The notes: generated by a model not told the origin, from the sequence alone. Positions 30,233-63,400 are shown, numbered from the stretch's first letter. The stretch is DNA of 64,000 bases from Lingula anatina (GCA_051362555.1 CM120648.1:13140587-13204586); one strand, 5' to 3'. A program made the numbers and translations.

Positions 30233-30286
<54 letters not shown>

Positions 30287-33409: not shown

Positions 33410-33520
33410 GAATAAATGGTGACGTAAGTGAGTGACTCGGCCTGATAAGTTGCGGGCAGGTAGGATGGTAGGGTTATAAAAACTGACGTACGGGGACAAC
33501 TTAACCAGCTCCATTATCAC
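33410..33520 (+). promoter_or_regulatory. Putative core promoter of peptide gene A (TGACGTAA, TGACTC, TATA box, second TGACGTA)
   Basis: TGACGTAA 33420-33427, TGACTC, TATAAAAA 33475-33482, TGACGTA just downstream; block conserved in all three copies. Confidence 0.65.
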
Positions 33521-33561
33521 TGCAGCTTGGATAAAATATTGTCTTACAATATAACGTGAAG

Positions 33562-36500
33562 ATGAAGACCGCATTTGTTCTGCTCTTGGTTTTTACGGTT
33601 GTTGCGGCTCGGTAGGTCTATACGAAATTCTTATCCTTATAATTCTTTTAAACATATCTCTTCTATGTAACTATTAGTTGCTTTTGATTGGTTATTCAGC
33701 CATTTCAGATTTACAGTGATAAAGATGTTCTAACCGTCTCTCTTGTCTCACGTGCCATACTCTGTCCTTCTTAAGCCTCCGAGAATGTTTCACCAATGTT
33801 TTCTCTTAACAGGTGGGAGCTCGACCAGCCACCGCCAGGCGAAGGGTAAGCCAAAAACAAAATGTATTCCTTACAAAGATTTTAAAGGAAATGACCTTCT
33901 TCTCGAACGTAATATATATGTAATATGTAATATATTATGAAAATCAGAGGACCTATGAGTACAATCGGTAATACTGTTAGTAGTAAAACTATAGCTAGTT
34001 GTTACCATTTTGATTATAAAGACGTCATGTGTTTGCTGGGTTCATATCTGAACACTGAAAATCGAAAGCAGAAGTATTGAATCAAAAGAGTAGCTTATCT
34101 GTAATATGTTAATTTTTGGCTCAAATTTATACAAATAATATTAGCATACTTTGCAGCCAATTTTCGATGCAGTTTGAGTTAAATTGAATATATAACACAG
34201 ATAAACGACTGTCTTAATTTTACATCTACCTGTAATTTCTGTCATGGTGTATAATCGACAAGGGTGACATATGTCCCGGTGTGGCAGGAGTTCACGTCCT
34301 AGTAACGCAAGACCGCCCGGACAAGTCCGTCCTGGGAATGCAAGTCCTAGGGCATGCATTGCTAGGAATGGAAGTCCTAGGACATACGTTACTAGGATTC
34401 AATGTCCGTAGGACAAAGGCTCCCAAGTAATGTAAGCCCTACGTGTAGTAATGCACGTCCTAATGGGTCGTGCGTTCCTGACATTTTAGTAACGCATGTC
34501 CTATATAGTTTACACCAAGAAAAGACATGACACTTCAGGCAGAATCACCCGATCAAATAATAAGGGAAATATCTATTTACCAGTTGGCAGACATAAAGAT
34601 ATACTGTACTAAATAGGGGCCCAATATCATTCCACACATTTCAATATGGACTTCGATTAAAATATGGAACTTCCTAAACTAGCTCTGTAGTTAGTAACTC
34701 CAAAGAATTGGATACTATTCAAAAGTTGTGTTTTAAAAAGTAAATTTTATTAATACAACCATTAAGTCATGTAGATTTAAGATTATACTAACATAATGAC
34801 TGTGTGGTCACACTATATAAAGTACGTTCAGTTAACAATGTATGATATCATTTAAAGCGGAGGGGGTCCTACTATAGCTCGCATCTATTGTTCAACACGA
34901 TTGTTATCATTTCCCAAACAAGCTAAAACCATGCTTTTACAATTTTCCAAAAAATAAAATGGAATAAAATCGGAGTTGGTTTGAACTGAAAATATAACAA
35001 AAACAACGGCTGTCTAAATTTTACATCTACCTGTAATTTCTGTCATGGTGTGTAATCAAAAGTTTACATTGCCAGATGATACTTATGTTCCAGTTACCTT
35101 TGTTCTGGGAGATTTTTTTTTACCGTGTTCCAATATATGCTGTAGTGATTCAGTCTAATTAAGTTATGGCTTACTAAAACAAAATTAGTAATTCGTGCAA
35201 TAGGTAACAGGGTTTTCTGTATAGTATTTTTATATGTTGTTTGACATTTCAGCAACACTAATAAAAAAAATGGTCCATTTGATGCTTCTTTTATTGTCAG
35301 CACGCTGCATTTCTATAATATTAATTGACAATCAAACTTAAACTAGGTACCAAAATCAATCGCTCTGAAAAACCTTTTTTGATGTTTTTACAACATTGCA
35401 TTTGTAATAGATTAATCATAAAACTAAAACCAGTTGTGATCAAATTTTCGAAGTAAATAAAACACTTCCGTAGCTAAATACAAACTGTATGCTTCTTTTT
35501 CACATTGGCTGTTGAATTATTTTTATTCGCCATGATTTCAGGACAGTGAAACTTTGATAAGAACTTCTTCATGATTATGTGGAATCCTGAAATTATCAAA
35601 CATAATTTCTACCCCGAGTACTAAATATTTAAAAAGCACGTCTGTGACATTATTTGCGCCTATATATTGGGCTTAGATGCATATAGTTTGTATATTACAG
35701 CTCTGTTGGTATTTGGAAGTGCTAGCAGGTGTCTAAACTGCATGGTTACTTTACCAATCTAAAATATTTTTACGTGCGGATGGTGACAATAGAAAGTTAT
35801 GACGGTTGGAATTATAAACACAGGTAACCTAAATTATTAAACTTTTATTTGGGGTACCTGGCGTCACGGCTAATTATAAGACGTATAAATAATAACGTTA
35901 TTTAAAAAAATTACATACAAGTAGCAGATGTTAGGGTGCATAAACTGAGCAAAGGAGCGTGTTATAGCATTGTAGCTCTGCGCCAGATTGACGCAAAACA
36001 GATTTACATTGCCAATATTATTGTATCGCAAGCAACGTTGGGGGCATCTACATCTGGAGTTGAATTCACGTTGGTGCCAAAACCTCATTGGCATCAAAAC
36101 CATCATACATAGCAACCCAAACTAGATCAAACGTAGGAACATTTGCTAGGAGACACCTCAGGAAAAATTTCACAACACAAGATAGAAATAACGCTTTAAA
36201 CGGTCGTGTTTGACTTAGAATCAGTTCTGCTTTTTTTTTTACCTTAATTTAGTGAATCCAATTAAGTATCTGATGTCAAAATTACACTGATTAGAAAATT
36301 AAAATTTCAAACGAGAATTTGAGTCTCGTTTTCATTTTAAAATCTGAAAGTAGGAGAAGTAATGTCATTTAGTTCGTAGTGTTGCGGTTCAGGGGCGACT
36401 TATAAAACGTAGCTTTCATTGTAAGTTTGGGTATGTATGTATTATATTTGGACTATGTTTTATTTTTTAGATTTATTAAGTGTCAATATAATTTAATACA

Positions 36501-36654: not shown

Positions 36655-36687
<33 letters not shown>

Positions 36688-36899
36688 CAAATATGTAAAA
36701 GTTTAAATGTATTTTCGCAGAAGGCAGAGTCAAGTAACACCCTGTAGGGGACCCGTTTGGCGGTAGTTTTGGAATCACGTCACTTCTTATCTTTAACAAT
36801 CCCCCTTTTCTCTTCCTCAGTGGACCACGAGGTCTTAACGAGGGTATCGTCATGAAAGTCATCAAACGTGCAGTTGACAACCAGAGGATGGAAAGGTAA
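33562..36899 (+). CDS. Secreted peptide precursor copy A (exons 33562-33611, 33813-33845, 36821-36895/36899): MKTAFVLLLVFTVVAARWELDQPPPGEGGPRGLNEGIVMKVIKRAVDNQRMER*
   Basis: ATG about 85 nt after a TATA box; hydrophobic signal exon ending CG|GTAGGT; 33-nt exon (TTAACAG| ... GG|GTAAG); 75-nt exon (TTCCTCAG| ... AG|GTAAAT). All junctions phase 2 and homologous to copies B/C. No exon-4 homologue seen, so the 3' end is uncertain. Confidence 0.72.
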
Positions 36900-37369
36900 A
36901 TATCTGGTGTAGGAATTGTAATTTTGATGTATGTTTTATTTTTAAGTTTTACTTTTTATTCTATTTTCATAGGATTTCGATCAATTCATTCAAAATATAC
37001 CTAACCCAGATTAACTGAAATCAGGCGGTGTTTGTAAAGTTATTAACAAAGTTTAACCCATGTAGCTTCAACATATGGCACAGTCCAAATGGTATGAGTT
37101 GCAATAAATATACTAGTACACCATAACTATCCATATTGTTTAAATGTGAAGAATGGACACGGTAAAATGCCGGTTTTCGAAATTTACCGAAACAGCGCCT
37201 AAACTGAGATTGCCCCTCGAAATGAAATATGAAACTTTAAAAAGCATGATTTTGTTTTATTAATGATGAAAGCTGAACTACGGCGTTTGATAAAATCGCT
37301 GTCAGGGTTCTCGAGTATTAAATAGTGTAATTAAATTACATTACATTTGCAAGTCTGGAAGGGTGATAT

Positions 37370-37900
37370 TGGTTGAGGTGCCATGTCAGTCCGCGTTTTG
37401 GGTGAATTCCATGTCAATGCTTATGGTTTTGAAGAATCTTCATTCCGGAACAGAGCATTAATTGGTACATTTGCAGTAACTTTCTCAACAGATATCTCCC
37501 TCCATCAGTAGAAAGTGACTTCACTTATGAGTACAGGCTTCATCATGACAACGCACTGGCTAACAGTTCTTGTTTGTTGACTGATTTGTTGCAGAAAGGA
37601 GATATTCTTAGATGGGTACAACCATCTTTGGGGTCGAATACTAACGGTACTGAGTACCTGAGGGATGATTTGGAGTGAGCGATGGACAGAAGGATTGTCC
37701 CTAACAATAGGAAACAATTTCGTTAAGCTCTTAAAGAATAATGGCACAACATAAATAGACCTGAAACCCTTGTTGGAGGCATTCTGGCCGCCTACAGGAG
37801 ATATATGCAGTACGCTGCAGAGACCCACGCTAATATGCACATGACTTTTAAAGAGCGTTTCCTGATGTTGATTATGTATACATTAATGACACTTGGTGGC
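37370..37900 (+). mobile_element. Old Tc1 transposase C-terminal remnant, duplicated with the peptide-gene unit
   Basis: Reads HHDNALA...QPSLGSNTNGTEYLRDDLE*...ALKE*WHNI, a decayed form of QDNA..H / WP..SPDLNPIE.LW / L..EW..I. Confidence 0.65.
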
Positions 37901-39519
37901 GTCTTTTAAATTTTATGGTCATTTTTCACTTCTATGGAAATCACTGTGGAAATCATATTTAAGATGGAGCATGTTCTTAATATGAATGGATGGCATATTG
38001 GCTTTTCCTTACCTGAAGTCACCATAATCATGGCATATGAAATTAATACAATATTTAAAACGGTTCAAAGCTGTCATGTGATCGTGATCATTTGTAAACA
38101 GAAGCACATACAGGTAGGACTTACGGTGTGACACACTTTTTTACCGAGAAGTGTATAATAAAAATCTTTATGTCTAGACCGAAACCTCTAAAGTAAGCTT
38201 ACAGGGCACGGTCACAGTTTTACCTCCATCTCCACACAAACCCGTGAACAAACACAAACCTGTTTCCTTCTACCTTTGAGTTTCCGCATCAGTGGTGAAG
38301 GTAAAAGGAGACCCAATTTATTCGGTAAGAAAATTTCCCTCACAAAGCCAAAAGAAATGTACACAGGTTTTCCACTTTTCTTCTTTTACCCTTTATTATA
38401 AGCAGCCTTCATTAAAATCTAGAGTTACACTGCGGGGCCAATGGTGACAGTGGGCCGTGAACGGTGACTGGCAGCCAAACAAAGATTGGATTGTCACTCA
38501 GATGGCCTTGGATAGCAGGAGCGGGGGTGACAACATGGTTCATACTTTGTCGACAAGTTCCTATGAGAGAAACTGTGGATATGTTGCTTGTACGTGTTGG
38601 GAAAAACCATATGGCAAAAGAGACAGTGCTTGAGGTTTTTCCTCAATTTTATACATATTATTTTTCATTTAATTGTCGTTCTGAGTCAAAGTATCTTTTA
38701 AAAGTCTAACTTTTCCACAAAGAGATCAGTTCACCTTAAACAATATTATGGTTATAGCAAAACAACGACACATGAAGTGATGTCATCAATCAACAGGCAG
38801 TCAGAAATTTGCAAAACTGGATATAATCGGTGTCATCAGGAAACCATGATGCTTTAGCATATCACTACTGGGGAAGGGGAATTCTACATGTACATAAAGA
38901 CACCCCAAGATTCTTAGCAAAAAAAATGCGGTATTAACTGAAAATATCCATGAGACCATGAGAAGTCCTCACGCATTTGTCTTTATTCTAATGACGAGGA
39001 CGACGAGTTGGAGCTTTCAACCGTTTATTTACCCACTAACCTTCCATACAAATTCAAGAGTTTATAGCTTTATATGCTCTTCGTGCCATCACCCATTTAC
39101 TCGCTTTTTTTTTTTTTTTTTTCATTGTAGTTTGCGTGATTACCAGACTTTTCCATTCTGTTGTTTCATTCGTCCATCCAATATTTCCTAAGGAGGCAGT
39201 CTGTTAGAGCCTTTTTTAATCAAAAATCTAAAGTATTTGAATTATTCAAACTTGTGTCATACCCGTCACTCAGTATGCATGTGTTAAACACGTGATGGAA
39301 ACTTTCAATTCCATTGTGGAGTTAACCTAGGAAATAAATTTGGACATGTTCGATCTTTTCCCTACACGAAAAGTGTTTTCTTCACTTGTTAACTCTTAAG
39401 GAAATTTAACTCACACTCTTTTTCCTTTTACCTATTTGATTCATTTTCAATTATTCCTTTTTCCCAGTCGTTTTAATTATAAACTAGGACATCCCCGGCC
39501 TCTAGTGGTTTCAGCACTG

Positions 39520-39630
39520 TATAAATGGTGACGTAAGTAAATGACTCGGCCTGATGAGGTGCGGGCAGGTAGGATGATAGGGTTATAAAAACTGACGTAC
39601 GGGGACAACTTAACCAGATACATTACCACT
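39520..39630 (+). promoter_or_regulatory. Putative core promoter of peptide gene B
   Basis: TGACGTAA 39529-39536, TGACTC, TATAAAA 39584-39590, TGACGTA; same spacing as copy A. Confidence 0.65.
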
Positions 39631-39676
39631 GCAGCTTGGATAAAACATTAATATTGTCTTACGATACAACGCGAAA

Positions 39677-42600
39677 ATGAAGACCGCACTCGTGCTGCTC
39701 TTGGTATTTACGGTTGTTGCTGCTAGGTAGGTTTTAATGGAATTCTCATACTCATACCCCCCCCCCCCCTTTACATCTTTTGTCGCCTTTGTGCGACCAT
39801 GAATCTGGCCCAGTTTCACTAAAAAACTTGAGTCAGTCCCTGTTTATTTACTTATTTATTTATTTATTTTATTATTTTTTTTTTTTTTGACAGTTGTCAG
39901 CATGTACAGTATTAAAACAGTGCCGAACTCGGGAACATCCAGTGTAAAGGGGGTTTACATGTGATTTTTAGATTTCGTCGATTATTTTATTCAATTATTT
40001 CAGATTTGCACGGATAATAAACTGTTTAAAAATCGTCTCCCTTAACAAACCATACTCGGGTTTCCCATAAATTCTGAGAATTTTTCACCGATATTTTGTC
40101 TTACCAGGTTGGGACTCTCGGAGGCACAAGAGGATAATAGGTAAGTCACAATAATAATAGCATTTACTTGTTTCAACGATTTTAAGGGTTATGCCCCGCA
40201 GGGTAGCCCACAATTATGTATTAAAAGTATGAACTTAGAGAAAATATACGTACCATAGGTAATGTAACCTTACAATACAACTAACACTTTATATCAGTAA
40301 ATTTTGAAAAGCAATGCATGTGATATTCCGTCAAAATAAAAAAGCGAAGCTTGTTTGAAATGTATATTTTTGGGCCCAAATTTTACAAATGTTATAACAT
40401 AATTTGCAGCTGATTTTGTGGCGGACAGTAGATAGCTGTGCGTTTTTCTTAACAGCATACTCTTAGAAAAACCGATTTTTCTGTTTTTACCTGAAATCGA
40501 AATTTCGACGTCACCTGTTAGATGACATATGTGTAAATGTCATTTAATTTAGTCGCTGAACACTGAAGATCTATTTATTACCCCCAAAAAATGTATGTAT
40601 GTATGTAAATAAATAAGTGGTTTTGGGTGAAGGATGACAATATCCTAAAGGACAGCGTCGGTATAAGACCTAATGAGCGGCTGAGGCGCACCAATCACGC
40701 TACTACAGTTTGTTGACTCTAAGCTCTATTGGTATTCGGAATGGCAAACCGGTGTCTTAACTGGACACCCTATACCTGGTCAATAACTTAAGAGCACGGA
40801 AACGTGTATTTGGGCTTATTTCCAATGAAACTATATATATGGCTACGTAGAACTCTGATTAGCACGCCTTCTCTTGTTTCTAACGTACCCATATAATCAT
40901 TCGCTCCTTTGTATTTTACTGGTACCCAACGCCAGGAGGAGAATGACAGAATTATTCTCAAGTTTGTTGCCAGCCTGACATTCCGAGCCTGAATTATCAA
41001 ATTCAAAGTCTTTATAGCTTCTGTTAGTCACGTGTGCCGTTGACACGTGAGTCAGTCCACAAATGTCACTGAAGCTCGTTACGCACTTGACCGGCTTCCA
41101 AACTGCTTACAATAAAGTAAAAAAATTTCAGATTGTTTGTATTGGTTCAACAGCTAACATGCTCCTTCTTCGCTGTTGGTCTTTGATGCATGACTTGGCA
41201 AGTGTCAACTTACTTTTATAAAGGCAATTTCAATACCAGTAAAAACTAAACCCGAGGCGCTGCAGTAAACCAGTTTTGCAACGCTGCACCAACAATATCG
41301 TATCGATAACTATATCGTAGGTAAATAAGCTTTGGTATTTTGTGAGCGTTCTGCAAGATATTAGGTTGACGAGGCATCATTACGTGCGGTTTTTCTTGAA
41401 AACAACACATGCGTCATTACTTTTGTGGATATTATAGCCTTTATTTGAGAGGTTCATACAAGTTAGACTGCAGAAAGAGCCAAAAATCATGAGGTTCCAG
41501 TGTAAGTACGGGTGTTCTCTTCACGTCCCTGCATTGTTTCTTATATATAACTTTTTTTCTCGCATCGTCGATACGCCCCCCCCCCCCCTCCCCTATGCAG
41601 AGAGAGAGATCGACCTGTACCTTATGCCCCCATCATATTAAAGCACTCCTGTCACCTCACCTGGTGCCGCCGTGTCTATTGGGGAGTAGAGCTGTGCTGT
41701 CCCTTGAAGTGCCTAAATGTATCCCATGACCCGACTTGACCTTAAAGCACTCCTGCCATCTCACTTGGTGACACCGCGTATTTTAATGTCCTCCGGGGCG
41801 TAGTACTAAGGTCATGGGGCGATTTATGAAACGCAAAATTATTTTTAAGGTTGGGAATACATACTTGATTTTTTTGGACAATTCCCTTTTTCAGTTTTAT
41901 TTAGAGCCATTGTAATTTATCTTACGCTACACTTGCTGTATCGTATGCCGAAAAGTACACAATGAGGCCATTAAGTATAGAAGATCCGAGGATCTTCTGA
42001 TCCACAGATAAATTATGACGGACCCTTCATGAAAGAAGAGCCGACTACCCCTTCGAAATTTTGTCTCATTTAACATTCATTTACAGTTCTCCATCTATTA
42101 TTGAACAAATAATATATATCTCCAAAACTGGCAGAGATAGGTCAATAGTTACAATTGAAGTTGAATAGGAAGTCATGTATTGGCAATTTAACTGTGACCT
42201 TGAAATTGACCTTTGACCTAATTTTCACCATGAACTGAAAATTTTCCTTCCTTTTTATCTCTAAAACTGGCAGAAATAGGCCCATAGTTACTATTGAACT
42301 TGAATAGGAAGTCATATACTGGTAATCTAACTGTGACCTTAAAATTGACCTTTGACCTAATTTTTGAAATGAACTGAACTGTGCAACTTTTTCAGTGCTT
42401 ATACTTTCAAAACTAGCAAAGATTTGCCCGTAATTACTATTAAATTTAAATAGGAATTAATATATTGGCAATCTAACTGTGACTTAAAAATAGACCTTTG
42501 ACCTACTTTTCACCATAAACCGCACTTTGCAAGGTTCCCTTTATATCTCCAAAACTGGCAGAGATACACCCATAGTTACTATTAAACTTGTAGGAAGTCA

Positions 42601-43079
42601 TATACTGGCAATCTAAGTGTGACCTTAAAATTGACTTTTGACCTACTTTTCACCATGAACTGAACTTTGCAACATTTAAGTTCCTTATATTTCCAAAACG
42701 GGCAGAGATAGGCCCATAGTTTTTATTAAACTTGTATGGAAAGTCATATACTGGCAATCTAAGTGTGACCTTTAAATTGACTTTTGACCTACTTTTCATC
42801 ATGAACTGAACTTAGATAGGTCCATAGTTACTTTTGAAGTTGAATAGGAAGTCATATACTGGTAATCAAACTGTGACCTTGAAATTGACCATTTACCTAC
42901 TTTTCATGATATATATATATTTTTTTAATCTCAAAAACTGACAAAGATATGACCATAGTTACTATTGAACTTGAATAGGAAGTCATATACTGGCAATATA
43001 ACTGTGATCCTGAAATTGAACTTTGACCTAATTTTTATTATTATATATTTTTGACAATGACCTTGTTAAATTTCATTTA

Positions 43080-43132
<53 letters not shown>

Positions 43133-43689
43133 CATTGTAGTAGCAGTAATAGTATCAAATATGTGTACAAGTTGCAAGCATCTTTGCACAGGGCTGAGTC
43201 AAGTAACGCTGTGCAGGTGTCCGTCACGTGGTGTTAATGGGTGTCATATACCTGTGGTAAGTCCTAACAATTCTCTTTTCTTATTTCCCAGAGACTGTCT
43301 AGAAAATAACAGGTGCCTCCTCCTGAAGGTTATCAAACGTGCCGTTGACAACCAGAGGATGGAAAGGTAAATAACTGCCTTATTTTGGAAAGGTGCAAGT
43401 TTTATTTATTTATTTAATTTTTTTTTTTTTTTTTCGTGTCACACTCTGATTTTTTACTCGAGATTTCGGTAAAATTTTAGAAACCAATGTAGAATATCGA
43501 CGAGCGTACTAGTACGTACCCCTGACACCTTTTGAACAGTCATTCAAAATATTAAGTTTAGCCCAGTATTTGACTTCCCTTATTTTGCTTTATATGGAGT
43601 ATTTTCTGATTTTATTTATTAACAGCTCCGAGCACTCAAACATTGAACATGCGCCCCCACAGAAGGTTGTCAAACGCAGCGTGAAGTAA
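39677..43689 (+). CDS. Secreted peptide precursor copy B (exons 39677-39726, 40108-40140, 43292-43366, 43626-43689): MKTALVLLLVFTVVAARLGLSEAQEDNRDCLENNRCLLLKVIKRAVDNQRMESSEHSNIEHAPPQKVVKRSVK* (73 aa)
   Basis: Canonical GT-AG phase-2 junctions give a continuous frame: signal peptide, C-x5-C loop, two KV[IV]KR dibasic sites. A further acceptor at 43968|43969 (TTTCGTTACAG) and ATTAAA at 44073 suggest a terminal, probably UTR, exon. Confidence 0.8.
42115..43035. repeat. Tandem satellite-like array, ~8 units of ~115-120 bp
   Basis: Recurring AAAACTGGCAGAGATAGG...TAGGAAGTCATATACTGGCAATCTAACTGTGACCTTGAAATTGACCTTTGACCTA; present in intron 2 of copy B only. Confidence 0.9.
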
Positions 43690-45664
43690 ACAAAGTAAAT
43701 GCACATGGAAAAAGGTGACCCAGATTTTTCTTTAATTGGGCGTGAGAGCAAATTCATTTGATATATTTTTATCAAAAAATATGTTTTAAAATGTTAATGT
43801 TACGTTTCCACTCAATGCTACAAATCAGATTTGATTATCATTACGGTTCCAGCCTAGTCGATAGTTGCTCATGACTGAAGTTAAAAACGAACGATTACAA
43901 AATGTAGATATTCAATTTACGATACTATCCGTCCGTTTAAAAGAAATGTCCAATTTCTTTCGTTACAGGTGTCTGTTCAATGTCCGTTGAATGCAGTTGG
44001 AAACCTTTCTTGGAGGAACACTGAAGAGTGCCCTGAGTGCCCATATATTTACTGCTACATTTGATACAGAACATTAAAATCACATGCACTAGTTAAAATC
44101 TTTTTTTTTTATTTTCTGATGCAGCCTTAAGCAAAGTGTCAAATATTATGACCCTGAGTTATACATTGTTACAGTCGCTCTTCGCTTACATTTTGAGAAT
44201 AAAATGTTTATCTTATAAAGGTCTACCGTACCACTTATTGTTTGTGAAGTTGTACTCTTTGTGCACAATATCTGAGTTATCTGAGTAACGCAATTCTGTT
44301 AATTAGTATCTTTTTGCAAACAGTTCTTTTTAGCATCTTTAATACATGTATTTAAATAAAGACGTCAAGTGTAAAAGTAGGTATACACCTGTCTTGATTT
44401 TTTTGTACTATATGAATTAAAACGTATTGAAATACAAATTATTAATTCAATTTTGTATGCAAAATTAATTTTTAAGAGAGAGTTGAGAACGAGATACAAT
44501 GGGGAAAAGGCGTAACAGTAAAGGGAGATATTTTTGAAACAGCGCGTTTAAAATTTGGTTGAGCCACGATCCCCAGGGTATTGTGCTTTTGTTGTCACAT
44601 CTTTGTCTTCTCTAACACAATCTTCAGCCTGCAATCTTCCATACCTGTCGCAGTATTGTTATTCAAATAAGAGCAATCGCATGCGACAACTATTCAAGAT
44701 GCCAGGAAGGAAGACAGATTTTCAGGCAGACTGTGAAGATTTCCGTGAATGCAACATGATTCATTCAGGTCTTCCTGCTTAAATTCTCCACATCAGCGTG
44801 TAAGTACAGTTTGAATGTTACTTTTCTTGCTACTGTATGTGACAAATACGCATAACACTTTCTAGTAAGATGGGGTATTTCAAAATTTTATCCTTGTGTC
44901 AAGTTCTCTGCTTTTTATCTAATCACTCAGAACGCCTGGACGTACGCGTGTTTTAACTGTTTATTTCTTAGCTGGTTATTTTTTCGTTTGTAGATGCTGT
45001 ATTTTAGTGATATTTAGTCTTGACATTTGATTCTAATGGAATGGTACATGAACTTTCGTACTTATCAGTATATAATCATACTCGTGAATTTCTTTATTTT
45101 CGTCCATTCTTTTGTCCTTGGACGCTGCACTGGTATTTGCAATACACGAAATTTTAAGTATAAGAGCATTACCAACGCATTGACTTTAGTACTGTCGAAT
45201 AAATGATCTCTTTTCTGACTTAATATTTTATTTCTAATTTCAGTTGTCCGGGCATACGAGTGATAAAGATGAAGATCGTTTCCTAGGAATAGACTTGTGA
45301 AGATTCTTTTGTCTATAGCTATTTATATTAGTTTGATCTTACCATCCATATTCCATATTTCATCTGCTTGCAGTCAGATTTCATCAGAATCAGACAAAAG
45401 AATCTTCACAAGTCTATTACAATAACATAGCTAATGAAACTGTTCTACAGTTTCCTAGGAAGAAGTAACAACAGTTCAAATACACCTTTTAAATTCAATA
45501 ACATGGATGCATGTTATACGAATGCAATGTGCATTTACACCGACACTGTAATGCACTTGCAGTGAAGTAGTAAAGGGCGGATAAAACGGGAACTCACTTT
45601 GATAATGTATTATTTTACTGCCTACTCAGTTGCAACGTTCGTTTGTACCCCCCAAAAAACTTAA

Positions 45665-46003
45665 AGGGATAATAAATCTTCGTTTCGGCCAAAAAATGAA
45701 ATTTCCTGGAGTAAACAACAATTTTTCCATACTTACCAATGGTTAATGAATCCATTTTTACATGCAAAGATAGTCCCTGGTTTTTTCTAAAAAGTTTGGT
45801 TTTTTGTTAAAATCTCTTAAGAGATTTTAACAGAGTATAGCCATCAATGGAGGTCACGTGGTCTAAAGACAAGCTCAGATATCAGAATAATAGCTATAAC
45901 TGTGCCGTTTTTGTGGTAAAACAGAATATATTATATTTTTATGAGTTATTCACAATGTTTTTTAATGTGAAATATAGATCTCATACGAAGAGTTATTATC
46001 CCT
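45665..46003. mobile_element. 339-bp MITE with TTAA target duplication and AGGGAT termini (Kolobok-like)
   Basis: TTAA|AGGGATAATAA(A)TCTTCGT ... ACGAAGAGTTATTATCCCT|TTAA; absent from the paralogous site after copy C (~62521-62535). Confidence 0.82.
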
Positions 46004-47542
46004 TTAATTGGTACAAACCATTTATATTTAATGGGTGTTTAAAAATATGACGGAGGCGCTTGTTGAGGCGGGGGGACCATGAGGTAATTACTCGGCGCTA
46101 CTTTTAAGCGAGTCGACCATATTTAGACCGTGGATCTGTTAGTCCGCAGAACAGCTTGTTCTGAATACGTTCTGTGGTATACAGTTTTACTCAGTTTACA
46201 AATTTTATTTGTGCTCCGACGAAAATGGTAAATAGATGATTTTTTCCTCATATGGTCAGATGTTTGCATAAGCTAAGCGTCCTTGGTACAACACATTCCA
46301 TTCGTATTACCTTGAAATCTGTGTTGCACGCTTATACATAAATACCGGTACATTGAAATAAATTGAATAAATCCTGACCAAATCTAAACAATATTTGTAT
46401 CTTGGTTTATTTTTCATATTTCCTATCCTTGCTGAAAATGAAGGAAAAAAAGGACCCGTTCCTTTTTTTTTCACTTCGACCGCCCGTTATTAACTGTAGA
46501 GTCCCCGAGTCGTGATTCTCGAGTTGTTGGGCTAAAGGATTTCATTCGCATTAAATGAAACTTTATAGTCCAATTCACCCATCCACTCACCCTTAACTTT
46601 GGAGCCTCTATTTATGGTTATGGGACGAATATTCTTTTTTTTTTCTGCAAAAAGTGACTTCATTGGATATTGATCTTGTCGCCTTCTTGTTCTCAGTCCA
46701 GCATTTTACCGGTTCTTCTGTTCAACCAACAGCCCACACTGTGCCAAAAACACTCTTTAAAACGCTTCAAATCCGCCATCTGATCATGATCATTTGTAAA
46801 CAGAAGCACATAGGGCTTAAGTTGTAACAAGCCTTTTGACCTAAAGTGAATATTAATAATCTTTATGTCTAGACCGAAACATCAGAACCCATCTCACAGG
46901 ACACGGTCACAGTTTCGCCATATCCCACGTGTACCCCTCTCTCTCCACACAAACGCGTGAAACACAAACTTGTCTCCTTCTACCTTTCAGTGATAAAGGT
47001 TTAAGGAGACTAAATTTATTTGGCACAAATTTCTCCCTCACAAAGCCTGAAGGAATGTACACAAGCTTTCCACTTTTTTCTGTCACCCTTTCCTATAAAC
47101 CATGGATCCATCCATCCATACGTGTCTATTAATCAATATGAGATTGACGTGAAATGACCTTCCATCTTGCCCTGTTCTTTTCTTTATTCGTGCATTCTTC
47201 CATTGATTTACTTGTCTGTCCCAGATATTTGAAACTCACAACCTGTTCCTTTTATCATCGATGGTTATGTTTGTCCCCAGTGGATTTTTTAAATCAACAT
47301 GACTTGCCAATAAACAGCCTTCATTAAAAGCTAGAGTTACATCGCGGGGATAACGTTGACACCCTGGAAGTGGGCCGTGAACGGTGACTGGCAGATAAAC
47401 GAAGATTGGAATGGCCTTGGACAGTAGGAGCAGGGTGACAACATGCATGTAGTCCACACTTTGTTACAAGCTCCTATGAGAGAAAGCGTGGATTTGTTGC
47501 TTGTGTGCGTTTGGAAGAAAAAACATCTGGCAAAAGAGTATG

Positions 47543-50475: not shown

Positions 50476-50519
50476 GTTTTACCGGTACCCTTGTTCCATC
50501 CTCTTTGCTTATATTACCC

Positions 50520-53500: not shown

Positions 53501-54050
53501 ACAGAAATCAAGAAAAAATTCTTAACAGAGCGAGGGTCGGGTGTTTATTTAGAGCAGAATTGTTTAGGCATAACTGGACTACTATTGACACACCACACAG
53601 CAACCGGGGTTCCCTTGAAACTCCTCTGCACTTCTTTTTCAGATGTCCCTCACTCAATTTAAAGTACCCTCCCCTTTACCAAAAAGTAAATGAAATTATA
53701 CATGAAAGTAACACATCTTTTAAAACACAAAAAGAAAAGCTGTCCCTATTTCTCTACGGTCATGGATCTTTATCACCCACCCAAAATGAAATTATCTTTG
53801 AAACTGTTGCAAATTTTCTTCTCGAAAACTTTGTCATCACTTAATAGGTACTATCTCTTTTCTTCTCCTTTCTTTCTGTTCTTAATTTGTGCTCCATAAT
53901 ATTTGAAGTTTTACATTTACTCTGTTGTATATATGTATATATGTATCCATTTGTTTTATTTATTTATTTATTTAATTTTGTGGAGAGCATATAATGCTTC
54001 CAGCGCCTTGCCTCCATTTCTTACTTTTGAATAAATGTTGTTAAAAAAAA
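50520..54050 (+). mobile_element. Non-LTR retrotransposon (APE endonuclease + reverse transcriptase; CR1/L2-group-like), disrupted ORF2
   Basis: FANIRS (APE start), YRSP, GDFNAH, PTR..SCIDL, TDHS in 50640-52059; K..GPD, NYRPISLL, QSGF, FLDIEAAFDRV, VPQGSILGPLLF, YADD in 52043-53122; C-terminal HFFFRCP in 53212-53844; AATAAA plus A-run near 54030-54050. Stops and frameshifts at ~50702, ~52050 and 53120. Confidence 0.93.
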
Positions 54051-54107
54051 TTTATTAATAATGAGCTACTAGGACAGTCCCGCCTCAGGCAGTTTTAGCA
54101 CCTGTTG

Positions 54108-54215
54108 AATAAATAGTGACGTAAGTGAATGACTCGGCCTGATGAGATGCGGGCAGGTAGGATGATAGGGTCATATAAACTGACGTACAGGGACAACTTA
54201 ACCAGCTCCATTATC
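54108..54215 (+). promoter_or_regulatory. Putative core promoter of peptide gene C
   Basis: TGACGTAA 54117-54124, TGACTC, TATAAA 54174-54179, TGACGTA 54181-54187. Confidence 0.65.
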
Positions 54216-54258: not shown

Positions 54259-54352
54259 ATGAGGACCGTACTTGTTCTGCTCTTGGTTTTTACGGTTGTC
54301 GCGGCTCGGTAGGTAGTTTTACACTTGACGGCTTCCTTTCGGTGTCCTATGG

Positions 54353-54409
<57 letters not shown>

Positions 54410-57400
54410 TTGTTGTTGTTGTTAAACTGGGACCAGTCATCGGTGTGGTCGTAGCAAGAAGGCACAACAATCGCTTTGGTTGCAGAATGAATGCTCATTT
54501 GTTTGGCCAGTTGTCGGCACGTTAAGTATTTATTACTCTCAAACAAGGCCATACTAGGGGGCATGGAAAGGACGCCGTCCAGTTTAAAGGGAAGGGGAGT
54601 TACATGCGACTTTCAGATTTCGCCGACTATTTTATTAAATTATTTTAAATTTGCACGGACTGTAAATTGCTTTTTAAAATAATCGTCTCCCTTAACTCAC
54701 CATACTCGGATTTCTTATTATTGTTGAGAATTTTTCACAAATGGTTTTTCTTTCAAAACAGGTTAGGATTCTCGGAGGAACAAGGTAGAGGGTAAGTGAA
54801 CATTAAAACAACCTTAACTTGTTCCAACTCGTATGGACTCCCATTAGAGAAAGGTCCCATTTTATATTTGCTGTTGTTTTTTCCATTTTTTCCCAAAGCT
54901 GAATGAAAAATGGGGATTGATGATTTTAAATGGATAATAAATTTGCATTCTTGTACCCATAGAATTTTGACTCCCCTAGTCTTTCAAATACACACACTGG
55001 ACAATAGAAGTGTCACCCCCTAAATCAGAGTAATAAAAGTAGGCAGATCTTGGGTAGTTATAATGCCTGATCTACTTATAATGAGACTTATGAGTATAAA
55101 ACCGCTATACCAGGGGATTGTATTGTTGGTCTTGTACAAGTACAGCAAATTTTATTCCTGTCTTCCTCCAATATGGCAAGATACAGGCAATTATCTAACG
55201 GTTACAGGCGTCAAGTTATTAACCTGAAGAGGCGGAATATAAGCAATGTCAGAATATCGATACAATTGAATTGTTCAGTCAGAACCGTGCAGAGGTTCTG
55301 GTCTCGGTATAGAAACCCTGGATCAAGAGACAAATTGCCTCTGATGGGTCGTCCAAGAAAAACTACTGGCCGTGAAGACCGACGACTGATTTTGATGTCC
55401 AGGTTGTCAAAGTTTGACACTGCTTGTCAGTTGACAACACAGTGGAACAATTTCATACATAAGAATGTGTCTGTGAAAATTGCTAGGCGTCGGTTACATG
55501 CTCAGAGAGTGTACAGCAGGGTAGCAAGACTGAAATCTCTTATATCGTTACAAAACAGGCAACGTAGAGTGAACTAGGGTCAACAGGATCTGGAACTGGA
55601 CAGTTCATGACAATTGTTCCTATATATTTTTTTTCTGATAAGTGTCGCTTTGGTCTGACCTCTGATGACAGACTGGTGCGATATGCTGGCGAACTGCTGG
55701 TAAAGCATTTGTACCACATGCACTGAATTTTCGAACCCGGAGCAGTATATTCATCATGGTGTGGGGCTGCATCAGTATCCATGGCTTGGGCGAATTGATA
55801 GTGGTTGATGGAAACACGATCGAATCACTAGAAATATATCGATGTTTTGGAGTCAGGCTTGCTACCATCTATTACTAACATGTTTGGTGACAGGAATTAT
55901 CCATTTGTTCACCAGGATGCTCCTTGTCACAGGCCCAGAGCAGTTGATCATTGGTTTGACCAACAGGGCATTCGCAGGGTGATGTGGCCTGCCCAGAGTC
56001 CGGATGCAAACATAATGGAAAATGTGTGGAATGATATGTCAAAACTTTTGACAAATGCCCGTCTAACCAGCAGAGAAACTCTGTTATATTCAGTGTTTCA
56101 TGCTTGAGCCAGCAGAAGCCCTGGACGCACCAGACAATTATATGAATCCTTGCCTCGTAGACTGGCACCTATTATTAGGTCACTTGGCTATGCCACTAAG
56201 TACTAATTTTGGACTTGAAACTGCATATTTTGGTAGAATGTATATTTTGTTATCATTTTGTGATTTTTTGTGAAATTTGATGTTAATAAAATGATACTAG
56301 GAGTCATTCCACAATCATTTATCTCTCCCATAGTATTGGTTCAGTAGGGGTGACACTTGTCCAGTGTGTGTATTTCCAATATAATCTTCATAAAGGAAAA
56401 GTTAAGGAAAGGTGTTGAAATGATCATCAAATATTAAATTAGATAGCTTTTTCATAGGATAGTTATTGGGTGATAAAATGCCCTTTTTTAATTTTCTTAT
56501 TTTTCATTTTTTTTTTTTTTTTTTTTTTAGATTTTTCACCCAATATTTTACTATCACACTTTCGAATATTTCCAATATAATCTTCATAAAGTAAAAGTAA
56601 AGGAAAAAATTTGGAATGATCATCAAATATTAAATAGATAGCTCTTTCACAGGGGAGTCACTGGGTGATAAAATGCACATTTTTGATTTTCATATTTTTC
56701 ATGTTTTCTTTTAATCCAATAGTTAACCATCAAACTTTCAATTATTTCCAATATAATCTTCATAAAGTAAATTTAAAGAAAAGACGTAGAAATGATCATC
56801 CAATATCAAATAAATAGCTTTTTCATAAAGAAGACAATGGGCGGTAAAGTGCACATTTTTAATTTTCTTATTTTTTCATGAAAATTTTCACCTGCAAACT
56901 AAAAAAGTGCCAATGTATCCCCCATTTTACATACTACAAGATCACAGTCATATACTCAAATAAAATAAGATTTAGGCCACACTTTTTTTATTTTTATGGA
57001 TGACATCCTCTGGGTACCCCAAAATCGGTGCGAGAGGGCGAAAAAAAAAAACAGTCCAAAAAAAAAAACTGCTTAAGTAAAGGAATGCTGTCAGTACACA
57101 GCTGGAAACACAAATTTAACCACAGAGACACGTATCAAACTAACAATATGTCTTTATCCATGCTCTCAAAATATTAAAGCATTGTGAATACTTCGTAGAA
57201 ATGTAAAAAAAAAGTCATGAATTGATATACTTCATATTACCAAATCTATTTAAGGTTATTTCATGCATTCATTTGGTATAGCAATCAATAAAACAAATAT
57301 CAATCAAACAGTGTGTCTTTATTTGTATTCTCAGAATATTAAAACATTTTGAACACTTCACAGAAATGTTTAAAAAATGAGGCAAAGATATGCTTAATAC

Positions 57401-60400
57401 TACCAAATCTATTAAAGGTCATTTCAGACGATGCCATTTTGTCAACTTCAACTCACACGAAGCAGCTAAACTGTCAGGTGGCCTGTCCGACCTTCAGCCC
57501 ACCAAATACCTCGACGCCCCTTGTCGACCCTTTTTTCGCTACAGAAAACCTGGTATTAATGTGCTGCTTTAAACAGAATGTCACAGAAATGTTTCGGCCG
57601 CCGCCAGCCTTTCGCACAATTGTAAAAAGGTGATATCTCCATGCCCAATATCAATGGCATACCAATCCAAAACGATGGCGCCCGTTCTCTTTATGACTTA
57701 TTGTTGTGTAATTTGAAAGTAATCCTAGAGATGAATTTGACAGCAAAGTGGCCGCATTTCCACGTGGCGAAAATACGCATGCGCAGAAAGCTCATTTCCT
57801 TGCAAATTCAATAACAACGTTTGCGACAACCGACTTCGTTGGGGGCTGGGGGGGGCTTTTTTTTTTTTTTTTTTTTGGAGAACGGACGAAAATCCATGCG
57901 CGCGCAGGATGTCATCCATAAAATTAAAAAAGTGTGGCCTTATGAAGTTTTGTGGAGGGGGAGTCAAATTTTCATGGGGGGAGTCAGATTTTCATTATGA
58001 AAATCTGACTGGGGTAGTCAGATTTTCATGGGAGTCAGATTTTCATGTTACACCGGGCATATATTTGGCTCTGTAGCCATTATATCGTGGACACACAAGC
58101 ACGAAATGGTACTCGTCCTCTATGTATGCTTCATTATAAGCGTTGCAGCAGAAATCACAATGTCTAAATTTGGGATCTATATTCTGATATCTACCCCTCT
58201 CGATTTTCAAATCATGACATGACGTTCTGAGCCGTGATAAGGCACTTCGCAATATCGTAGGTAAATACCCCTTGATAGATATTGTGCAAGATATTACATT
58301 GATGAGTCAACAGTGCGTGCGTTTTTTTTTTTTTTTTTTTTGTTTTTTTTAACAACAACACTTGTGTCATCACTGTTGTGCAAAGTATAGCCTTAATTTG
58401 AGAGGTTAATACACGTTAGACAGCAAACGGAGCCAAAAATCTTGAGTTTCCACTTTAAGTACGGGTGTTCTCTTCACGTCCCTGCATTGTTTCTTATAAA
58501 TATCTTTTTTTCTCGCATCGTTGATACCCCCCCCCCCCCCGCCACCTCCCACCCCACGCAGAGAGAGAGTTCAACCTGTAGGCTACCATAAATTTCGATC
58601 ACATTAAAGCACTCTTGTCACCTCACCTGGTGACACCGTTTCTATTGTGTCTTTGGATCTGCGTTCGTGTACTTGGAAGTGGCTGAATGTATTCCACGAC
58701 TTGACTTGAACTTTAGGCACTCCTGCGATCTCACTTCGGGGCCTATAGTGTAAAGGTCATGGGACGTTTTTAAAGTTGGGAATACATGCTTTATTTTTTG
58801 GACAATTTCCTTTTTCAGTTTTATTTAGAGCCATTGTAATTTATCTTACACTACAGTTGAGAGATTCATATTTGCTGTATCGCATGTGCCAAAGGTAAAC
58901 AGTGAGGCCATTAAGTATAGAAGATCCGAGGATCTTTTGATCCACGGATAAAATATGACGGACCCTACATGAAAGAAGAACCGACTACCCCTTCGAAATT
59001 TTGTTTCGTTTTACATTTCTCAAGCTATTATAAAACATTTGGTGTATTTTTTTTTATTTTTTTTTTTAATTTTTTACAGTTCTCATGTTGTTTTGTAACG
59101 AATTTAAGAGTTCGAGAACTGTTTCTGGGAAGTCCTTCAGAACTGTAAAATAAAAAAAATTTGAACCAGCGCAAGTTTTTATTTACTTTCAACTTCAACA
59201 TTTTTTTTTTTAAGTCTTACATTACATTCAAACCACGTGTGACCAACAAACATGTCACAACTTCACCCCGCATGGAGTCCACACTCTCTCCAACATGGAA
59301 AAACTACTCCTTCACTCCTTTTTTACCACTGCATATTCACCTCTAACACAATTTAACACAATTGGTCACAACCATACAACAACCATATTTGACATTAAAA
59401 GAGAAAAACATTATGTTCTAGGACAGATTTAGAACCGCGAGTGAGCGTTAAATGAGACAAATTTTCGCAAGGATAATCCGCTGATGGTGTTTCGCCTCCA
59501 CACTCGCCAGTAAACGGCTGCGAGGTTTAATTGCTAGACCCCTGCAAGGACGGCGCGTTAGTCGGCTCTTCTTTCGTATAGGGTCCCCCATATTTGATCC
59601 GTGGATCAGAAGATTCTTGGATCTTCTGTTCTCAAGAGCCTAAAGCACTTCTGCCATATCTCATTTAGTGTCACCGTGTCTTTAGAGGCGTAATGTTTAC
59701 GTTGGGGTTATTATATATTGGCGACATATAGAACTTTAGGTTCTTTATATGGTTGAGAATTCATGTTTTATTGTACCACCAGCGTAAGTGATGGCGGTAT
59801 ACATGTTGCATGTTTTATTATTGCATATTTTTGACAATGGACTTATTTAATTTTTATTAAGAGCCATTGCAGTAGTAGTAGCAGTAGCAGTAGTTGTATT
59901 AAATATGTGTAAAAGTTACAAGCATCTTTGCAAAGGGCAGAGTCAAGTAACGCTCTGCAGGTGTCCGTCACGTGGTGTTCATGGGTTTCATATAGGCCTA
60001 CCTGTGGCATGGTAAGTCCTAACAATTCTCTGTTCTTATTCCCCAGAGAGTGTCAAGGAATTACCAAGTGCCTTCTCCTGAAGGTTATCAAACGTGCCGT
60101 TGACAACCAGAGGATGGAAAGGTAAATAACTGCCTTATTTTGGAAAGGTGTAAGTTTTATTTATTTTTATGTATTTTTTTTCGTGCCACACTCTGATTTT
60201 TGACTCCAGATTTCGGTGAAATTTTAGAAACCCATGTAGAATATCGACGACCGAACAATTACGTACCCATGACACCTTTCGATCAGTCATTCAAAATATT
60301 ACGTTTAGCCCAGTATTTGACTTGTCTTATTTTGCTTTATATGGAGTATTTTCTGATTTTATATATTAACAGCTCCGAGCACTCAAACATTGAACATGTG

Positions 60401-60436
60401 CCCCCCCAGAAGGTTGTCAAACGCAGCGTGAAGTAA
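54259..60436 (+). CDS. Secreted peptide precursor copy C (exons 54259-54308, 54762-54791, 60047-60121, 60373-60436): MRTVLVLLLVFTVVAARLGFSEEQGRGECQGITKCLLLKVIKRAVDNQRMESSEHSNIEHVPPQKVVKRSVK* (72 aa)
   Basis: Same splice sites and phases as copy B; exon 2 is one codon shorter (30 nt), so frame is preserved. Probable terminal exon from 60716. Confidence 0.8.
54991..56370 (+). mobile_element. Tc1/mariner DNA transposon, full length, transposase inactivated
   Basis: TIRs CACACACTGGACAA...GTGTCACCCC / GGGGTGACAC...TTGTCCAGTGTGTG; TA target duplications at 54989-54990 and 56371-56372. Confidence 0.93.
55173..56206 (+). pseudogene. Tc1-family DDE transposase pseudogene
   Basis: HTH region SVRTVQR, GRPRKTT.REDR, MVWGCI, HQDAPCH, WPAQSPDANIMENVW, terminal GYATKY*; broken by a stop at 55575-55577 and by frameshifts. 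Confidence 0.9.
56975..57939. mobile_element. Non-autonomous TIR element with TTA target duplication (PIF/Harbinger-like)
   Basis: TIR GGCCACACTTTTTT(T)ATTTT(T)ATGGATGACATCCT at both ends; TTA at 56972-56974 and 57940-57942; the empty site AAGATTTATGAAG is seen in other foldback subunits (e.g. 49772-49784). Confidence 0.82.
58058..58255 (-). mobile_element. LINE ORF2 3' fragment
   Basis: RSALSRLRTSCHDLKIERGRY...RHCDFC...IEDEYHFVLVCPRY..YR is the typical C-terminal Cys/His region of non-LTR retrotransposon ORF2. Confidence 0.8.
58917..59630. mobile_element. Non-autonomous element with ~110-bp imperfect terminal inverted repeats (only the left end is retained in copy B, at ~41978)
   Basis: AGAAGATCCGAGGATCTT(T)TGATCCACGGAT...GAAAGAAGAACCGACTA is mirrored by TAGTCGGCTCTTCTTTC...ATCCGTGGATCAGAAGATTCTTGGATCTTCT. 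Confidence 0.6.
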
Positions 60437-63400
60437 ACAAAGTAAATGCACACGGAAAAGGTGACCCAGATTTTTCTTTAATTGGGCGTGAGAGCAAATT
60501 CATTTAATATATTTTTATCAAAAAACTATATTTTAAAATGTTAACGTTACGTTTCCACTCAATGCTACAAATCAGATTTGATTATTATTACGGTTCCAGC
60601 CTAGTCGATAGTTGCTCATGACTGAAGTTAAAAACGAACGATAACAAAATGTAGATATTGAATTTACGATACTATCCGTCCGTTTAAAAGAAATATCCGA
60701 TTTCTTTCGTTACAGGTGTCTGTTCAATGTCCGTTGAATGCAGTTGGAAACCTTTCTTGGAGAAACACTGAAGAGTGCCCTGAGTGCCCATATATTTACT
60801 GCTACATTTGATACAGAACATTAAAAGCACATGTACTAGTTAAAATCTTTTTTTTTTCTGATGCAGCCTTAAGCAAAGTGTCAAATATTATGACCCTGAG
60901 TTATACATTGTTACAGTCGCTCTTCGCTTACATTTTGAGAATTAAACGTTTATCTTATATTATAAAGGTCTACCGTACCACTTATTGTTTGTGAAGTTGT
61001 ACTCTTTGTGCACAATATCTGAGTTATCGGACCTTAGAGAGGACACCAATATTGGGGTCTGGTCTCTCTCGCGGCGATGTGTGCTAGTCGGACCAGCGTT
61101 AGAACGTGCTTGCTCCACAACTCACATAGTCTTTATAAACCGCTGAAGTAAAAAATAAATGAATAGATTAATAAAATCTATGAGAAATCACGCAATTCTG
61201 TTAATTAGTATCTTTTTGCAAACCGTTATTTTTAGCATCTTTAATACATGTATTTAAATTAAGACACCAAGTGTAAAAGTACATGTAGGTATACACCTGT
61301 CTTGATTTTTTTGTACTATATGAATTAAAACGTATCGAAATACAACTTATTAATCCAATTTTGTCTGCAAAATTAATTTTTTAGAGAGAGTTGAGGACGA
61401 GATACAATGGGGAAAAGGCGTAACAGTAAAGGGAGATATTTTTGAAACAGCGCGTTTAAAATTTGGTTGAGCCACGATCCCCAGCGTATTGTGCTTTTGT
61501 TGTCACATCTTTGTCTTCTCTAACACAATCTTCAGCCTGCAATCTTCCATACCTGTCGCAGTATTGTTATTCAAATAAGACCAATCACATGCGACAACTA
61601 TTCAAGATGCCACGAAGGAAGACAGATTTTCAGGCAGACTGTGAAGATTTCCGTGAATGCAACATGATATATCCAGCGCTTCCTGATTGAATTTTCCGCA
61701 TCAGCGTGTAAGTAGCCTACAGTTTGTATGCGACTTTTCTAGCAACAGTATGTGACAAATACGCATAACATTTTCTAGTAAGATGGGGTATTTCAAAACT
61801 GAACCCTTGTGTCAAATTCTCTGCTTGTTAGCTAATCACACAGAACGCATGGGGGTGTTTTCACTGTTTATATCTTAGCTGTTTATTTTGTCGTTTGTAG
61901 ATGCTGTATTTTAGCGATATTTAGTGTTGACATTTGATACTAATAGAACTTGGTACATGAACTTTCGTAAACAGCATAAATAATGATTATAAGTGACTTT
62001 TGGTTATCGCACCTTCAAGGGCAATATGACCTAATATTGCTACAGATGTACAAGCATGTTTAATGCAGTGTAATTGCGGTTCCCTGTATATTCTCGAATG
62101 AAATCAACAGAAGAAACCTGTGAATTTCTTATTTTTGTCCATTGTTTTGTTCTTGCACGCTGCCCTGGTATACGCAATACACGAATTTTTAAGTGCATTG
62201 TCACAACGTTGACTTAAGCGCTGTGGAATAAATGATTTCTTATCTAACTTAATACTTAATTTCTAATTTCAGTTGTCCAGGCATACGAGTAATAAAGATG
62301 AAGATCGTTTCCTAGGGGGAAATAACAACAGTTCAAATGAACTTCTAACGGTCAATAATGTGGATGTATGTTATACGAATGCGGTGTACATGTACGGTGA
62401 CACTGTCCAGAATGCGCTAGTAGTGAAGTAGTAAAGGACGAGCTGATTAAATGAGAACTCACTTTGATTACTTGGGATCATAGTGCCTACTCAATGTACG
62501 TTTGAAACATAACCTATCAAAACTTAAATTGGTACAGACCATTTATATGTATAGGGTGTTTAAAAATATGACGGTGCAAATAGAAATAGTAACTAATTTT
62601 ACTGTTTGCGAGATTTCTAAATATTTTGATTAACTTAAAGTATCTGTGCCAGGGTTAAAGGGTTGTAATTACATCAAAGTAGGAATGTTGAATTGATGAA
62701 ACGGGGACGATGTGACTGGAATAGTAGTCCTAGAAATGGCATAATCATTGTCCTATTTACATTATTTCTTGGTGATGATGTTTGATTACTTTTTAATGGC
62801 TAAAAGACAAGAAGAATGGTTAAGGAATCTAAGATTCTGTCTACGTTTGTAACATTACCCAGCGTACTTAAATCGGTACAAACAATTTTACTGATATTAA
62901 TAGGACCTTCTGAACGATGACGGGACGTAGCGAAATGGTTGCTACCCGGTAATTCAAGTTTGCGAGATTTTGAAATATTTTTGATAATCTAAACATTTTA
63001 TGCAGAACAAACTCCATGTCGCTTCTTGAGACATGGATTTTTCCATGGTCTGTAAGGATAATTTCCTCTGTGTTACTATATAATATACGAGTCCATTCAC
63101 AACAGATGATCCGCCGACTAATATGACCGACCCCACTAAAAACAATGCCGCTTAATTCCTGATGGTCTCCCTGCCTCCAGAGGCTCCGAGATTTAACTGC
63201 TAGGCCCCTGCAGCGAAGGCGTGTGTGGAGGCGGGGAGATCATCAGGTAATAAGTCGGCAGTGCTTTTAAGTGAATCGGCCTTATTTAGTTTGCAGATAT
63301 GTTAGTTCACGGATCAAGTTCTTCAGAATGCGTTCTATGGTATACAGTTTTGATCAGTTTACAGATTTTATTTGTACTCCGACGAAAATGGTAAATAGAT

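Follow-up and report, generated by a model that had tools for sequence, protein, structure and literature searches.

Which products are encoded by three dispersed sets of very short exons in the Lingula anatina genome (GCA_051362555.1 CM120648.1:13140587-13204586)? A reading made from the sequence alone had proposed that they form a tandem family of secreted peptide precursors, conserved at the signal exon and around a lysine-arginine (KR) site and hypervariable in between. The window analysed here is the whole 64-kb stretch, from which all coordinates are counted, and all features of the family lie on the + strand. The gene family is transcribed and spliced, with copies varying by sample, and it extends beyond the window, as the main expressed copies differ from the three (A, B and C) that the window carries. 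Our preferred interpretation, to which we give a probability of roughly 0.5, is that precursors of ~73 residues are likely secreted, that cleavage at two KR sites likely yields a pair of short peptides from each, and that these likely serve as recognition ligands, acting between individuals or on a host surface. The family is apparently undescribed; its overall kind, that of hypervariable secreted peptide families, is well known.

Gene callers and homology searches miss lineage-specific secreted peptides with tiny exons, and this family is transcribed yet absent from the protein collections searched. Its peptides are specific enough to be synthesized as candidates for a signalling or defence system not yet described, and it offers a compact test case of exon exchange and selection producing new bioactive peptides.

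Gene structures and transcripts

The coding exons measure 50, 33/33/30 (A/B/C), 75 and 64 nucleotides (nt), and the genes span 3.3, 4.0 and 6.2 kb in A, B and C, respectively. Their positions are as follows.

33562..33611, + strand: coding part of copy A exon 1 (50 nt, signal peptide); spliced by coordinate, and A-like reads map here
33813..33845, + strand: copy A exon 2 (33 nt, proline-rich); nearly zero RNA depth, found in DNA run X1
36821..36895, + strand: copy A exon 3 (75 nt), with the invariant KR cassette and without cysteine
36973..37110, + strand: sole candidate terminal exon of copy A (15 codons, AATAAA at 37103), unproven; ~4.6x depth in this bin in X19
39677..39726, + strand: copy B exon 1, coding part (signal peptide); RNA junction to exon 2
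40108..40140, + strand: copy B exon 2 (33 nt, acidic); joint 39724->40106, GT..AG, in RNA
43292..43366, + strand: copy B exon 3, encoding a C-x5-C ring, a hydrophobic tail and the invariant KR cassette; ring unchanged in 4 X15 reads
43626..43689, + strand: copy B exon 4, 64 nt up to the stop, with the second KV[IV]KR; an old duplicate of exon 3
54259..54308, + strand: copy C exon 1, coding part (signal peptide); from sequence
54762..54791, + strand: copy C exon 2 (30 nt); from sequence
60047..60121, + strand: copy C exon 3 (C-x5-C ring, invariant cassette); C-type ring letters in 23 of 23 X12 reads aligned on B
60373..60436, + strand: copy C exon 4 (64 nt to stop); from sequence

When the copies are spliced by these coordinates, all eight introns (201 to 5255 nt) are GT-AG and in phase 2, there are zero internal stops, and open frames of 73 amino acids in B, 72 in C and 52, without an end, in A are obtained. 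The motifs named by the sequence-only reading all lie where it had placed them (window pattern search), and its four-exon gene models hold for B and C, with phase-2 GT-AG exons of the lengths it gave, but not for A. No counterpart of the 64-nt exon 4 was found for copy A within the window by the KV[IV]KR pattern, by alignment or by self-comparison; the pattern has five exact matches in the window, namely the three exons 3 and the two exons 4. Since the only candidate end, after nt 36972, is a 15-codon exon unrelated to exon 4 of B and C, copy A is either truncated or equipped with a new end. Among the copies the signal exon is alike at 42-46 of 50 nt, while exon 2 of A and B agrees at just 15 of 33, and exon 4 of B and C differs at 2 of 64 nt.

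Reads of 5 of 9 RNA runs and 1 of 11 DNA runs were aligned on the A and B stretches, with C not covered, and the read fraction used was 6% of X12 and X15 and 25-30% of X18-X20. The GT..AG joint between exons 1 and 2 of B is spanned by 97, 110 and 109 reads in X20, X19 and X18, respectively, and by none in X12 and X15. This corresponds to ~9-10 junction reads per million records in X18-X20 against 0 in X12 and X15, so expression differs by sample. Junctions of the predicted kind, on whose presence in transcripts the sequence-only reading had staked its models, are thus found in RNA.

A-like transcripts connect exon 1 of A with exon 3 of A via a different exon 2 (84, 56 and 36 reads). This exon is 30 nt long and has its six initial codons as in A, followed by an acidic run that replaces the proline-rich run; the A-like exon 3 has two 5' variants with similar read numbers. 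Exon 2 of window copy A, by comparison, has an RNA depth of 0, 0.14 and 0 in three runs. In DNA run X1 it was recovered on a 531-nt contig with one difference, at a depth of 89 against 88 for its neighbours, and at two exon-3 sites the window letters and the expressed A-like letters are both present (99.3 of 185.8). Most simply, the A-like expressed copy would represent a fourth locus and not an allele, although contig depths added together do not give a true copy number.

An expressed B-like copy joins exon 2 of B to a ring one residue from that of C and then to a divergent exon 4, in which 6 of the first 28 nt differ from exon 4 of B (counted by eye). It groups with B in exon 2 and with C in the ring, and stands apart from both in exon 4, a mosaic pointing to exchange between copies or to a rapidly changing ring in B. 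The ring of window copy B is unaltered in all four X15 reads. Two kinds of exon 4 follow exon 3 in the reads, with 30 nt visible of each. The first (127, 151 and 128 reads) is homologous to the window exon 4, has no cysteine in the 30 nt seen, and belongs to the B-like transcripts, the match ending at the same base (36892). The second (68, 34 and 33 reads) encodes a cysteine pair, occurs in length variants (agreement 0.76-0.79) and has 0 matches in the window with 3 mismatches allowed; we infer that it belongs to the A-like transcripts, because its read counts track the A-like counts (110, 80, 56). The hypervariable segment had been placed before the first KR, and this segment does differ among the copies, but with two more kinds of exon 4 the variation extends further than was proposed.

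Two further observations concern the reads. In X12, 23-25 reads carry the C-type ring, yet exon 1 of A and that of B are nearly uncovered (33300-33703, 39360-39763), which hints at a copy with a different 5' end. At 43719-44034, 34 reads of X18 and 52 of X20 lack 314 nt of the B 3' untranslated region. The ends of this gap are not those of a splice, and it probably reflects a deletion in one of the expressed copies.

Precursor modules, selection and genomic setting

Hydropathy in the precursors peaks at residue 6 (3.37) and stays at or below 1.57 thereafter. By the -3/-1 rule, signal cuts after residue 15 or 16 fit A, B and C, while a cut after residue 23 fits B alone; the pyroglutamate peptide suggested earlier requires this last cut. 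KR occurs at 42/43 in all three copies and at 68/69 in B and C, so that by hydropathy and the -3/-1 rule the layout is of the prohormone type: a signal peptide, no second hydrophobic segment, and dibasic sites. No Gly-basic amidation motif is present in the A, B or C precursors, the A-like exon 4 being seen for 30 nt only. The cysteines of the C-x5-C ring are residues 30 and 36 in B and 29 and 35 in C, with none in A, and the ring begins 13 residues into the predicted peptide. Module 1, the variable part before the first KR, has a net charge of -1, -1 and +1, and segment 2, after KR, a charge of -2.

The alignments show that exon 4 arose long ago as a copy of exon 3, so the precursor has two variable modules around the KR cassette. 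In the four B/C pairings of exon 3 with exon 4 the alignment score is reached by 0-1 of 2000 shuffles, and in B and C both modules end in KV[IV]KR; exon 3 of A against exon 4 is not significant (146-174 of 2000). Exon 2 was ruled out as another duplicate of exon 3, since 232-1968 of 2000 shuffles reach its score. There is probably one cysteine pair per precursor, lying in module 1 (B, C and B-like) or in module 2 (A-like).

The 13-residue cassette is identical at 13 of 13 residues across A, B and C; A-like reads have one replacement inside the cassette. Its amphipathic moment (0.80-0.81) is the highest in each precursor and is reached by 70-80 of 2000 shuffles, and it is modelled as a helix with a predicted local distance difference test score (pLDDT) of 89, in a single-sequence and hence weak model. 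Between A and B/C the cassette shows three synonymous and no replacement changes (p about 0.007), and the ratio of synonymous to replacement changes in the signal exon is 4:1 (A-B), 5:2 (B-C) and 1:3 (A-C). These counts indicate purifying selection on the cassette and, mostly, on the signal exon. Of the 15 nt in the ring interior, 5 are different between B and C, each of them a replacement, against 98 of 1775 non-coding sites (5.5%; binomial p 0.001), which is moderate evidence for positive selection on the B/C ring.

By self-blastn the locus is a segmental tandem duplication, in which A and B have a common upstream unit and B and C a common downstream unit. The duplicated parts and the promoters are listed below.

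31615..33641, + strand: upstream section of the duplicated unit, second copy at 37586-39756 (self-blastn, 75-81%)
43123..46570, + strand: downstream section of the duplicated unit, second copy at 59871-63838 (self-blastn, ~92% close to the gene)
33420..33490, + strand: copy A promoter, with cAMP response element (CRE)-like, AP-1-like and TATA elements and a second CRE-like site (consensus; predicted function)
39529..39600, + strand: copy B promoter elements (consensus)
54117..54190, + strand: copy C promoter elements (consensus), directly downstream of the 3' end of a long interspersed nuclear element (LINE)

The promoter pattern common to A, B and C has 3 occurrences against 0.00 expected, which together with the RNA junctions shows that the arrangement does not arise by chance. 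The CRE-like, AP-1-like and TATA elements are retained in all three promoters. Such elements are frequent in regulated secretory genes.

The locus is rich in repeats. The LINE-like element (50476-54055; endonuclease and reverse transcriptase motifs recognised by eye in three frames) ends in AATAAA and poly(A) ~205 nt before the start of copy C, and interrupts the upstream unit common to A and B. A foldback-like element, with long inverted arms built of tandem units, lies at 47539-50476 and about 54830-58060; its second, partial copy sits in intron 2 of C, as does a decayed Tc1/mariner transposase (55071-56370; Pfam HTH_Tnp_Tc3_2, E 1.5e-6). The ends of this transposase element are also present at 28003-28241. 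Intron 2 of B contains a ~143-nt tandem repeat (42115-43052) to which RNA reads align in their thousands (90-95% likeness), with a strong strand bias in X12 and X15; these reads come from a transcribed repeat family at other loci. Outside the peptide genes, 355-15149 (+) and 19128-30248 (-) are inverted, tail-to-tail duplicates (74-84% alike) of a multi-exon DUF8401/somatomedin-B-like gene, and the clusters of this neighbouring DUF8401 gene are mostly molluscan; its family points to marine invertebrates. A local tandem duplication with a ~1.2 kb period, 86% alike and non-coding by open reading frame scan, occupies 29066-31027.

Proposed processing and function of the peptides

We propose the following course for these precursors, all steps of which after splicing are inferred. 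The signal peptide would be cleaved after residue 15 or 16, and the amphipathic cassette would sort the precursor to regulated secretion. A convertase would then cut at KV[IV]KR, and trimming would leave non-amidated, near-neutral peptides of about 25 and 24 residues, with one disulfide ring per precursor, in module 1 or module 2. An amphipathic helix is known to direct proCART to secretory granules (PMC3602189; this and the other papers below are cited from excerpts), and by this analogy a role as sorting and cleavage signal would explain the invariance of the cassette. The family may have diversified as tandem copies arose, symmetric phase-2 exons were exchanged between them and selection acted on the ring. 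Recognition ligands are favoured because the near-neutral charge speaks against membrane killing, the presence of at most one disulfide against a classic channel toxin, and the fast mosaic change against a conserved hormone.

Several points weigh against recognition ligands. Endogenous signalling peptides are usually conserved, and rapid change suits defence or toxin roles equally well. The first KR sits within the predicted amphipathic helix and so may escape cleavage, and the amphipathicity test itself is marginal (p about 0.04). The ring interval was chosen post hoc and one non-coding patch is equally dense in differences (6 of 1733 overlapping windows), which is why the evidence for ring selection is graded as moderate; in the variable codons of A against C the proportion of replacement differences (pN 0.45) is below that of synonymous ones (pS 0.59). 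As the promoters are 84-91% alike overall, the retention of their motifs is weak evidence. RNA support for the window copies is also thin, with about one read for exon 2 of A and four for the ring of B.

Comparison with known systems and competing explanations

Databases were queried with exon pieces rather than the spliced precursor, so that remote relatives could be missed, and the proteins of the organism seem absent from the collection (the best match of the neighbouring gene is to Lingula, at 34%, with none among longer proteins); for both reasons a missing homologue is weak evidence. A protein search with the exon-3 alignment returned one candidate and none at E <=10 (lengths 13-91 covered). 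A search of representatives gave three matches, all repeat-rich and without the cassette, from a profile in which 28 of 52 columns are intron-derived padding. Pfam yielded 0 families for the four exon pieces, with none at E <=10 for exon 3 (24 amino acids), and PDB sequences yielded 0 matches to exon 3 at E <=10; the best Atlas value, 0.81, is at chance level, and a metagenome pattern search and Rfam each gave 0. The short motifs of the family occur in no paper found, where subscription journals, figures and supplements may still hold a description. The excerpted supplement of PMC8557429 showed no matching precursor and 0 family-specific motifs, and of its seven general-motif matches the five inspected are all unrelated. 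The lineage-specific family postulated earlier is accordingly borne out as one that is transcribed, spliced and unmatched in the databases searched with exon pieces.

In the order of its parts the precursor is most like those of myticalins, and the competing explanation that survives best, unlikely as we consider it, is that the products are myticalin-like innate defence effectors. The variable module after the signal would then be the antimicrobial and the acidic part after KR a discarded extension. Myticalins and modiocalins of mussels have the same succession of signal, variable core (23-42 residues, similar to the length here), Lys-Arg and acidic C-terminal part, and form a lineage-specific multigene family that varies between individuals (PMC5577615, PMC12294457). 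The copies vary in the present family too, copy A is probably truncated, the stretch ending at KR is amphipathic, and the promoter appears inducible from its consensus elements. Myticalin cores, however, are strongly cationic (pI above 11, over 10% Arg), cysteine-free and in many cases amidated, and a single exon, followed by a phase-1 intron, encodes signal, core and KR, according to the excerpts. Here the cores are near-neutral, their net charge of -1 to +1 arguing against a cationic antimicrobial, and the gene has four phase-2 coding exons; the part after KR is under purifying selection and has a variable, sometimes cysteine-bearing module of its own. Identity with myticalins was rejected, since the layout agrees (KR at 42/43, anionic extension) but core charge and gene structure do not.

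Also unlikely, and ranked after the defence effectors, is a hormone of the calcitonin type or a similar class-B type, derived and duplicated, whose first KR would remain uncut and whose ring and helix would form one ligand of 35-40 residues. Invertebrate calcitonin-type peptides have a seven-residue disulfide ring followed by an amphipathic helix (PMC6283891, PMC6002491); B and C have a C-x5-C ring and, after it, a predicted amphipathic helix. In the sea cucumber, the calcitonin-type gene comprises four exons, the third and fourth of which encode two peptides (PMC12638048), like the two modules here. A loose likeness to an excerpted starfish peptide was noted by eye, unscored. Unlike nemertean calcitonin precursors (PMC8557429, excerpt), the present ones have no dibasic site before the ring; KR falls within the helix, and copy A has no cysteine and thus no ring. 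Defining features of the calcitonin type are absent: A, B and C have no Gly-basic or Pro-amide signal, and exon 3 has no Pfam or PDB-sequence match in the searches described above. Rapid change of the ring is atypical of a conserved hormone. A possible likeness to amphioxus calcitonin-family peptides was not used as evidence.

The sequence-only reading had likened the locus to conotoxins and frog skin peptides. In these a conserved pro-region and KR precede the C-terminal mature peptide, whereas the present precursors carry one variable module ahead of KR and another after it, and the likeness does not stand in that form. Venom or defensive toxins from a gland, as one-disulfide or linear peptides, are quite improbable, even though the conserved signal exon, the replacement-biased ring, the birth and death of copies and the exon mosaics would suit them, and exon shuffling at compatible intron phases has built cone-snail toxins that mimic hormones (PMC13542836). 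MgCRP-I has a conserved pro-region and KR before a C-terminal six-cysteine mature peptide, an order opposite to that found here, and it showed no toxicity in spite of its toxin-like architecture, so that architecture is no proof of toxicity (PMC4558851). A conserved signal exon, a hypervariable peptide, a dibasic site and duplication with positive selection are features in common with the MgCRP-I/conotoxin type (PMC4558851). Membership of that type was nonetheless rejected: no pro-region with a dibasic site stands before a C-terminal multi-disulfide peptide, the conserved piece is central, and there are zero or two cysteines, that is at most one pair. The introns here are all in phase 2 while the first introns of conotoxin genes are mostly in phase 1 (PMC13542836, excerpt), and expression in the five RNA runs is modest. 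The least probable explanation, that of unprocessed matrix or mucus proteins, or of a family drifting under relaxed selection with incidental KR motifs, can appeal to KR cleavage being a prediction, to the modest selection signal in the ring and to a copy A that looks truncated and is nearly silent, but it has against it the retention of KV[IV]KR in both duplicated exons, the purifying selection on cassette and signal exon, and intact frames with indels in multiples of three.

Two other systems show a partial likeness, namely elevenin (L11), a conserved peptide, and the micro-exon genes (MEGs) of Schistosoma. Mollusc elevenin precursors (PMC8557429, excerpt) place a ring peptide right after the signal, then a short tail, KR and a C-terminal region, but have eight residues between the cysteines and zero sequence motifs in common with the present family. 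MEGs, as far as the excerpts describe them, likewise have short exons set in long introns and encode secreted products that vary, and the internal exons here are symmetric, but MEGs have 10-20 exons, mostly of 15 nt, and diversify by alternative splicing. They were ruled out, as there are four coding exons here, only one of which is of 30-33 nt. No exon skipping occurs among the splice joints listed (RNA on A and B).

A bolder version of the recognition ligand reading, which is doubtful and which we place below the hormone and above the toxin explanation, is that of a two-slot combinatorial generator. In it, symmetric exons would be swapped around an invariant KR helix, with the disulfide in either slot, and each individual would secrete its own set of ring and linear peptides, a code by which mates, kin or self could be recognised; the family may then derive from a co-opted calcitonin-type hormone gene. 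Among hypervariable peptide families the layout is in any case unusual, with two exon-duplication slots, an invariant, predicted central helix that contains a putative cleavage site, mosaic exons, and a disulfide that appears to shift between the slots.

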